From Escherichia phage vB_Eco_J-01: DNA of 64,000 nt. The notes under the pieces were generated by a model. That model was not told the DNA's origin, made no database searches, and saw only the letters and a list, made by a program, of their open reading frames with translations. Every line of letters starts with the position of its first letter. Positions within the stretch are counted from its first letter, which is position 1. The translations under genes were made by a program, and so were the position numbers. Below are positions 23,063 to 24,207 of this stretch, one piece after another. The stretch is from the sequence record PQ438393.1. One strand, 5' to 3'.

Positions 23063-23557
23063 ATGACGCTAATTGAGATTGATCGCAATGGTATTGATGA
23101 ATGCTATCAAGCTGGCTTAGTTAAGCCGAATGAGTTTAGACAGATTTATATTGACAAGATTGAAAAAGAAATATCTCTTCGTTTAGAGAACATGACAACT
23201 TTGCAAAAAGTTCAGATGTTTTTTAGTTGGTTAAAAGGCGAGGATTGGCTAACTAAATATTACCAGGAATTATCTGATAGTCAAGAAGGCTTGTTTGAGT
23301 GTATAATAAATGTAGCTGGGTCTAATTCAGAATTACTCCTGATTGATGAAGAAGATTCTAAACTTCTTTTTCTTAGCAGTATTTTTCACAAGAAATCTAT
23401 GTTAGTAAGAAATTGCAGTGATTTACTAAATCATCCACTAACAAGAACTAATAAAATTCTTGTGGATAAAGAAACACTAAGAGCTATTGATTACCTCCGT
23501 AAATATGTAAGCGGTGGTAAAGCAGTCCTTAAAACACTACAGGAGGAAGTACAATGA
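23063..23557 (+). CDS. hypothetical protein
   Basis: ORF track; GGAGG RBS. Confidence 0.5.
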   Translation: MTLIEIDRNGIDECYQAGLVKPNEFRQIYIDKIEKEISLRLENMTTLQKVQMFFSWLKGEDWLTKYYQELSDSQEGLFECIINVAGSNSELLLIDEEDSKLLFLSSIFHKKSMLVRNCSDLLNHPLTRTNKILVDKETLRAIDYLRKYVSGGKAVLKTLQEEVQ

Positions 23558-24207
23558 CAACAATTATTGCAACACGTAACAAAATTCTGTCTGACGGTAA
23601 AGTAACAGTAGGTAGTCGTGTAGACACTTTAAATTTCAAGAAAGTGCGTAAAATTGGGGACTACCTTGTTGGTGGTGCAGGACGTCTGTCTTCTATCCTG
23701 ACTTTCTTTTCTTGGTTCGAACAAAACTTACAATGCCAAGCAGCACAAGAGACAATCCCAGGTTTGGTGATCCAGTCCGATCCTGATAAAGAAGATGAAG
23801 AGTTTGTGGCATTGGTTGTTCACCCAGACGGTAAAATTTATATGCACGAGGGTAATAATCCAACGCGAGCATATCCTTTAACTGAAGATTACTATGCTGT
23901 TGGTAGTGGGGCAGATTTTGCTTTAGCAGCTTTAGACGCTGGGGCAACCCCAGAAGAAGCAATGGAAGTTGCAAAACTACGAGATGCTTTTTCAGGGGGT
24001 GAAACTTTTGTTGAAGAGATCGAAGAACAACTGGAGCTAACAGCGGAAGATATTCTGAACTTCAGCAAGGAGCAACTAATTAGTATGCTGTTGACTGGTG
24101 ATCCTGATAGTGATGAAGCTGAAAGTATTTTAGCAGAAATGAAAGAATCACAAGAAAAAGTATTGACAGTCTCTGAAAAACTTGATAAAGTATCCTCTGA
24201 TAATTAA
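23554..24207 (+). CDS. HslV/proteasome-like N-terminal-threonine hydrolase
   Basis: MTTIIATR...DG...KVRKIG...GGAG aligns with my recollection of HslV N-terminus; acidic C-terminal extension. Confidence 0.55.
   Translation: MTTIIATRNKILSDGKVTVGSRVDTLNFKKVRKIGDYLVGGAGRLSSILTFFSWFEQNLQCQAAQETIPGLVIQSDPDKEDEEFVALVVHPDGKIYMHEGNNPTRAYPLTEDYYAVGSGADFALAALDAGATPEEAMEVAKLRDAFSGGETFVEEIEEQLELTAEDILNFSKEQLISMLLTGDPDSDEAESILAEMKESQEKVLTVSEKLDKVSSDN

Follow-up and report, generated by a model that had tools for sequence, protein, structure and literature searches.

A PPH-type proteasome homologue with an acidic C-terminal extension, encoded by Escherichia phage vB_Eco_J-01 without an evident partner ATPase

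Proteasome homologues encoded by tailed phages were described as a class in 2021 (phage proteasome homologues, PPH; Fuchs et al., PMC8665760). They are proteins of about 140 residues without a propeptide, and the missing helix H2 is a hallmark unique to them and to the related RPC, which are reported only from proteobacterial genomes and are more divergent than PPH (PMC8665760). Another relative, the Betaproteobacteria proteasome homologue (BPH; PDB 5ovs/5ovt), is a descendant of HslV for which no ATPase partner has been identified and which proved inert in standard peptidase assays (PMC5777263). An HslV without HslU has also been remarked upon for a Salmonella jumbo phage (PMC7823757). Here we analyse a gene of Escherichia phage vB_Eco_J-01 (PQ438393.1) which occupies positions 23554..24207 (+) of a 64,000 nt stretch, referred to below as the window. 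The gene is the orthologue of phi92 gp058 and encodes a protein of 217 aa starting with MTTIIATRNK. A previous interpretation made from the letters of the window (hereafter the sequence-only reading) had delimited this open reading frame (ORF) with its MTTIIATR start, exactly as we find it, and had proposed a proteasome/HslV-like hydrolase lacking a partner ATPase in the vicinity. We consider it near certain that the protein is an N-terminal nucleophile (Ntn) hydrolase of the PPH type. The reading that we prefer for its function, to which we assign a probability of roughly 60%, is that of an ATPase-independent accessory peptidase without a dedicated unfoldase.

Judged from sequence comparison, the ORF is a real gene and not a chance ORF, because its product matches PHROG 1040 ('peptidase HslV family') with E=8e-62, passes the gathering cut-off of the Pfam family Proteasome (PF00227), though narrowly and over residues 11-63 only (25.1 bits vs 22.4), and is matched by tblastn in 166 phage records. 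Two ORFs on the opposite strand within the gene (93 and 58 aa) are without support. The closest solved relatives by sequence are HslV proteins, with that of T. maritima (1m4y) reaching E=5e-8, and E. coli HslV can be aligned by phmmer to residues 1-131. Residue conservation was assessed in an alignment of 23 homologues sharing 32-80% identity, in which M1, T2, T3, D14, K30, G41, G43, S118 and G119 are invariant while D144 and S147 are nearly so. By alignment, the conserved residues correspond to Thr1, Asp17, Lys33, the oxyanion glycines (Gly47) and the GSG serine (Ser129) of HslV and the proteasome. The conserved columns, the structural model and the Foldseek matches together delimit a catalytic core of residues 1-157 (23554..24024, +) that comprises Asp14, Lys30, GGAG at 40-43, GSG at 117-119, Asp144 and SGG at 147-149.

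The predicted N-terminal nucleophile is Thr2 (codon at 23557..23559, +), which aligns with Thr1 of E. coli HslV. The sequence-only reading had based its proposal on HslV-like N-terminal blocks with this threonine and would have abandoned it if the residue were lost in related proteins. No such loss occurs: Thr2 is present in 23/23 homologues, and a more distant set of relatives collected by an exhaustive HMMER search starts with MTT in 125 out of 143 cluster representatives. The specificity of methionine aminopeptidase is such that an initiator methionine preceding a threonine is removed. An AlphaFold2 model computed from a 60-sequence alignment has a mean predicted local distance difference test score (pLDDT) of 91.7 and contains the alpha-beta-beta-alpha Ntn fold. 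In Foldseek searches with this model, 20S beta subunits, HslV and BPH were retrieved about equally well (probability 1.00, E about 1e-9, template modelling score 0.55-0.67), and among these matches sequence identity peaks with HslV at 22-27%. The membership in the proteasome/HslV superfamily proposed earlier is thus confirmed, with every catalytic position conserved.

The parallel drawn with HslV itself holds for the superfamily and the catalytic set but does not extend to orthology. The HslV equivalog models of NCBIfam give scores far below their cut-offs (NF003964, 34 bits vs 137; TIGR03692, 31.6 bits vs 157.75). The secondary structure of the model as assigned by DSSP consists of helix H1 (residues 45-67), a coil of 16 residues (68-83) and a strand (84-89), so that the position of helix H2 of HslV is coil. 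This predicted acidic, non-helical segment, IPGLVIQSDPDKEDEE (23755..23802, +; 6 D/E vs 1 K/R), stands in place of H2 and of the basic pore cluster. HslV is a dodecamer built from two hexameric rings and is activated by HslU. Its apical helices H1 and H2 contribute to the pocket that accepts the HslU tail, with F54, F57, A79, K80 and Q114 as pocket residues (PMC6429459). The phmmer alignment places L49, F52, Q74, S75 and Y107 at these positions, only F57/F52 being identical (1/5). The basic pore cluster of HslV, R86/R89/K90, is important for activity and is remodelled by HslU (PMC5777263). Its counterparts according to the same alignment are K79/E82/E83, and D81 is invariant and E82 nearly invariant among the 23 homologues. 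The pore region is therefore predicted to be acidic. On these comparisons the protein is not an HslV orthologue.

The PPH class provides the better match, the comparison with published PPH and with RPC being one with their descriptions. The protein shares with PPH the tailed-phage origin, the lack of a propeptide, the Thr1/Asp/Lys/Gly set, a compact core without H2 and the fact that no partner ATPase is known. It differs from them by a somewhat larger core (about 157 aa vs about 140) and by a C-terminal extension of 60 residues, acidic and helical, which carries an (S/T)KE(E/Q)L(L/I) motif and brings the whole protein to 217 aa. When residues 1-160 were used as query, phage proteins of about 140-150 aa scored 45-75 bits, compared to 22-42 bits for forms of 180 aa having an H2-like segment and 29 bits for E. 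coli HslV. By these scores the core is closer to the phage proteasome homologues of about 140 aa than to E. coli HslV. Together with the absence of H2 predicted by the model, they place the protein in the PPH type as this class has been described. A mini form taken as query has relatives in phages of Caulobacter, Rhizobium, Erythrobacter and Rhodobacter, and the relatives of about 140 aa obtained by cluster look-up are all metagenomic. The assignment to PHROG 1040 is less informative in this respect, since mini-PPHs, phage forms of 180 aa and E. coli HslV itself match the same PHROG, which serves as a wide annotation category and not as a functional family and is silent on partner or substrate.

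Resemblances to the other described systems are more limited. The RPC also lack H2 and possess extra C-terminal sequence of no known fold; the family found here is however viral, with a single 425-bp contig as its match in a genome scan. The features in common with HslV are the MTT start with Thr1 exposed by removal of the methionine, and the GDG, KKVR, GxAG and GSG blocks, whereas H2 is lacking, the pocket is mostly replaced, the pore cluster is acidic, there is no hslU gene and the C-terminal extension is added. BPH resembles the phage protein in its derivation from HslV, its acidic pore region, a non-conserved HslU interface, the lack of an identified ATPase and a comparable fold match. In contrast to the phage protein, BPH retains H2, has a long acidic pore loop, is a cellular, stress-linked protein forming a heptameric double ring, and is only 19-20% identical. 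Proteins of this general kind are widespread: the family profile retrieves 2,064 cluster representatives at E<=1e-10 in the exhaustive HMMER search, and 47 viral structure entries of BFVD match the model at E<=1e-3. In Aeromonas phage 4L372D (MK813939) a second, divergent proteasome/HslV-like protein is encoded directly upstream of the PPH-like gene. This gene, 4L372D_228 (L007 3432-3983), codes for 183 aa, has a TTG start followed by a threonine codon (LTCIIALRD...) and matches phrog_1040 with E=1e-25. This phage thus has two different Ntn subunits encoded as a tandem pair.

The most distinctive part of the protein is its C-terminal extension (residues 158-217; 24025..24204, +). The sequence-only reading had rightly called it acidic but had put its length at about 40 aa. 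It is 60 aa long, with 16 D/E vs 5 K/R and an isoelectric point (pI) of 4.05. In the model it forms predicted helices at 164-169, 172-181 and 187-216 with pLDDT values of 82-89, decreasing to 69 over the last residues. All homologues of at least 33% identity have a tail, and wherever there is one it is acidic (22/22), with a length of 40-222 aa and a pI of 4.05-4.65. Acidity is thus what is conserved, not the sequence or the length of the tail. The exception is a proximal stretch, AEDILNFSKEQLISMLLT (residues 164-181; 24043-24096, +), containing the motif (S/T)KE(E/Q)L(L/I)xx(L/I)(F/L), which reads SKEQLISMLL in the window and includes the nearly invariant Leu175. In the homologues from Vibrio, Shewanella and Aeromonas phages (L005 4001-4831, L006 4001-4723 and L007 4001-4885, respectively) the protein ends in a shared HeH/SAP-like DNA-binding motif (...L..LGVKF.HNIG.E.L..K...). 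This motif is absent from the window protein, and no Pfam family matches the C-terminal domains of the longer homologues, the HeH/SAP-like motif included. A scan of 185,579 species genomes for the extended subfamily, carried out with two peptide patterns only, gave the single 425-bp contig mentioned above. The extended subfamily accordingly appears to be confined to viruses, that is, to phages and phage-like contigs, as far as can be judged from these patterns.

How might such a protein work? In the reading that we prefer, the host methionine aminopeptidase would remove the initiator methionine and thereby expose Thr2 as the N-terminal nucleophile. The protein would then oligomerise and act as a cytoplasmic, ATPase-independent peptidase cutting peptides, unfolded proteins or specific targets during infection, and the acidic C-terminal arm would most plausibly serve in interaction, gating or oligomerisation. 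The gene would be an accessory one that the phage can lose, its product being separate from the head-maturation protease. A natural variant bears on this last aspect. In one record of Escherichia phage VEcB (MT932211) an in-frame deletion of 1,121 bp, equivalent to window positions 22618..23738, extends from the PhoH-like gene upstream (22274..23026, +) across the intervening gp059-like gene (23063..23557, +) into the PPH gene; the two aligned segments have 9 bases in common at the junction, which lies near L015 2500-2508. The gp059-like gene is thereby removed along with PPH residues 1 to ~62, including the catalytic Thr, Asp and Lys. The resulting product, vecB_055, has 267 aa and consists of the N-terminal PhoH part fused to PPH residues ~63-217. 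If the deletion is real, the three genes appear to be dispensable for propagation, which would fit an accessory, condition-specific role.

Several points weigh against the proposed mode of action, and activity as well as ATPase independence are far less sure than the PPH-type identity. The inertness of BPH in standard assays is the main reason for this, since general peptidase activity cannot be taken for granted from the conservation of catalytic residues. A literature search found no experimental study of activity, oligomeric state or substrate for any PPH, and no functional work on phi92 gp058. That H2 is missing is a prediction from an AlphaFold model of the monomer. Residue F52 of H1, which corresponds to F57 of the HslU pocket in HslV, is conserved, and this leaves room for docking to the host HslU. 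Lastly, a second VEcB record (OZ035773) is intact, and the deletion in MT932211 is possibly an assembly artefact.

The question of a partner ATPase is central to this reading. As the sequence-only reading had observed, no HslU-like gene is adjacent: Pfam and PHROG annotation of the window neighbours revealed no HslU/ClpX-like gene adjoining the PPH gene, and the annotation of the complete phage Eryne genome (PQ529420, 99% identical) lists no such product either. Neither is any ATPase conserved beside the PPH genes across the phage lineages examined. On the available annotation there is no evidence for a dedicated unfoldase in the phage. The peptidase might still rely on the host and dock onto HslU (ClpY), either to form a hybrid ATP-dependent protease with a specificity chosen by the phage or to sequester HslU from the host HslV. 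We regard this as unlikely, despite the fact that no solved family is closer in sequence than HslV, that the MTTI start is identical and that F52 is nearly invariant. The hosts named in the match list would also be suitable, being mainly Escherichia, Klebsiella, Vibrio, Aeromonas and Shewanella, which possess HslUV. However, H2, the source of A79 and K80 of the pocket, is absent from the model, four of the five pocket residues are changed, the pore cluster R86/R89/K90 has become K/E/E and the scores fall far short of the HslV equivalog cut-offs. Moreover HslU was not recovered in pull-downs with BPH, which likewise descends from HslV (PMC5777263). Of the two options left by the sequence-only reading, pairing with host HslU or acting alone, the former is therefore weakened by the altered H2, pocket and pore residues and the latter is better supported.

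A partner encoded by the phage itself, namely the PhoH-like protein, for which the gp059-like protein would be the adaptor, or one of two AAA paralogues of phrog_2376, seems to us still less probable than docking to HslU. The case for PhoH is one of gene order. PhoH is found near PPH in several phages, in the marine contig L011 the stop of PhoH and the start of PPH share 4 nt, and terminator-like hairpins bracket the three genes in the window. The adjacency may simply be inherited synteny, though, and the mini-PPHs have neither PhoH nor AAA as a neighbour. As a partner we reject PhoH, for the synteny, striking as it is in this phage clade, is absent beside the mini-PPHs of four alphaproteobacterial lineages. 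PhoH is also a superfamily 1 (SF1)-helicase-like, RNA-directed ATPase and not an unfoldase (PMC7824862). The AAA (PF00004) ATPase of the window is encoded at 60339..61466 (-), and its paralogue is found in Eryne (PQ529420 57370-58530; L003 7371-8531). Both weakly resemble p97/Cdc48/fidgetin and have Walker A and Walker B with no aromatic-hydrophobic-Gly pore loop between them. The phrog_2376 family is represented in 379 phage records, and many of these are from phages of Enterococcus, Bacillus, Staphylococcus and Lactococcus, none of which feature in the PPH match list. With such weak similarity, no aromatic pore loop and a distribution unrelated to that of PPH, a role of the AAA paralogues as dedicated unfoldase was judged unlikely.

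The preferred reading of an ATPase-independent peptidase also has to be weighed against explanations that concern the reaction itself. The protein could have a non-degradative role, as a specific processing enzyme or connectase-like transpeptidase, or as a scaffold or decoy with an acidic tail for binding basic host proteins or imitating nucleic acid. Precedents exist in connectase, a proteasome homologue acting as a ligase (PMC8665760), and in BPH, inert on standard substrates (PMC5777263). The tail, whose acidity is maintained in spite of its variable sequence and length and which in some homologues ends in the HeH/SAP-like motif, would be compatible with such a role. Yet the full catalytic set and the glycines of the S1 region are strongly conserved, which argues for chemistry at Thr1, and the S3/S4 insertion specific to connectase is absent, the model having only short turns between the N-terminal strands. 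We thus hold a non-degradative function to be improbable. Capsid maturation in phages needs a protease, and a virion or prohead maturation protease might be looked for in this protein. This possibility is effectively refuted and was rejected: the head module contains its own head maturation protease, flanked by the genes for portal and capsid (Eryne CDS0004), the PPH gene lies outside this module, and a VEcB variant devoid of the catalytic N-terminus has been deposited.

A more elaborate version of ATPase independence can be imagined, in which the proximal tail motif is a built-in surrogate of the activation tail of HslU (EDLSRFIL in E. coli). It would fill, in cis or in trans, the groove vacated by H2 and so make the peptidase self-activating, while the distal acidic helix would recruit basic host targets and PhoH, gp059 and PPH would constitute a portable host-takeover module. 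We mention this as a speculation with little chance of being correct, because its basis is a loose resemblance between motifs.

PPH is the last gene of an apparent three-gene unit with PhoH and gp059. The PhoH-like P-loop ATPase (Pfam PhoH, E=1.4e-35) is its first gene. The stop codon of the second overlaps the ATG of the PPH gene (ATGA at 23554-23557), and the Shine-Dalgarno sequence AGGAGG (23541..23546, +) is situated 7 nt before this ATG, within the 3' end of the gp059-like gene. A terminator-like hairpin, CCCCCTCAAGGGGG followed by TTTATT (24220..24238, +), begins 12 nt past the PPH stop and was recognised by a consensus scan and in the sequence as a putative terminator. The unit is bracketed by GC-rich hairpins with T-runs, at 22238-22257 after the lysozyme gene and at 24220-24238 after PPH. 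For the latter the scan delimits the bracketing hairpin as 24220-24232, and the former was called on the minus strand only, yet is a near-perfect palindrome.

The gp059-like protein (164 aa, phrog_14834) accompanies PPH genes of at least 43% identity and was not detectable in the phages of Vibrio, Aeromonas and Shewanella. Its invariant residues are C14, K21-P22-N23-E24 and C118-S119-D120. The AlphaFold2 model is all-alpha with a pLDDT of 93.7. It found no fold match in the PDB at E<=1e-3, and neither Pfam nor PADLOC gave a match for the protein, which to judge from the model looks like an orphan fold. PADLOC also had no match for PPH or for either of its flanking genes.

In the window the neighbours of PPH are PhoH, two proteins without assigned function and a methyltransferase, and the gene sits among genes of nucleotide metabolism and host takeover on the other side of the genome from the head module. 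PhoH precedes PPH at a distance of 0-2 small genes in Phapecoctavirus, Vibrio phage qdvp001, Shewanella phage 1/40 and several metagenomic contigs, and at one of several genes in Aeromonas phage 4L372D. In these phages the whole region from ribonucleotide reductase through glutaredoxin, lysozyme and PhoH to PPH is syntenic. The mini-PPHs of the four alphaproteobacterial phage lineages (Caulobacter, Rhizobium, Erythrobacter and Rhodobacter) have entirely different neighbours. Because of this region-wide synteny, and because mini-PPHs occur without a PhoH neighbour, we read the adjacency of PhoH and PPH as inherited gene order and not as diagnostic of a common function.

The phage is itself a phi92-like Escherichia myovirus (Justusliebigvirus, Stephanstirmvirinae). 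Over a 4-kb stretch around PPH, its best matches among phages of this kind, which include phi92, Eryne, ALITA and alia, show 98.5-99.2% identity. At the protein level, identity to phi92 gp058 and orthologous proteins amounts to 98.6-100%. In GenBank these proteins are labelled "peptidase HslV family", "putative 20S proteasome", "putative nucleophile aminohydrolase" or "hypothetical protein", so that the HslV-like nature of the gene is already part of the public annotation. The class itself was published in 2021 (PMC8665760), and an HslV lacking HslU had been noted in other phages (PMC7823757). Gene, family assignment and the puzzle of the missing partner ATPase are thus already public. What we add is that the acidic extension is conserved and carries a motif, that acidic residues take the place of the HslV pore cluster, that PhoH, gp059 and PPH form an apparent lineage-specific unit, and that a natural deletion variant has been deposited. 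As an annotated member of its class the window gene itself adds little, and the locus does not make the function of the whole PPH class newly testable; its merit lies in a tractable E. coli phage for which a natural deletion variant exists. Given how widespread phage proteasome homologues are, their substrates and their working without an unfoldase would bear on host takeover and on the ATPase independence of proteasome-like proteases.

A few records of other named hosts contain identical or similar proteins. PPH is matched at 100% and 99.1% in records labelled Campylobacter phage C3 (MG065656.1) and Salmonella phage UAB_1 (OL656106.1), respectively, and at 76% in that of Pseudomonas phage PsgM04F (OR584014.1), while the record of Serratia phage KKP_3264 (OK210077.1) has a 100% match to the AAA ATPase of the window. 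Proteins 76-100% identical to those of phi92- or phAPEC8-type E. coli phages are thus found in records labelled Campylobacter (jejuni), Salmonella, Serratia and Pseudomonas, which suggests either that the host range is broad or that hosts have been mislabelled.

With respect to the AAA proteins of phrog_2376, they are annotated in other records as 'FtsH-like protease' or 'ATPase or Zn metalloprotease'. The Phapecoctaviruses have one copy, and relatives also occur in Lactobacillus phages and in jumbo phages. Close to the AAA gene of the window, at 58861-60264 (-), a protein of 467 aa is encoded that combines four CapR homology domains (PF21817, E=5e-46) with a C-terminal T5orf172 domain; its orthologue in Eryne has been called shorter and bears no annotation beyond 'endonuclease'.

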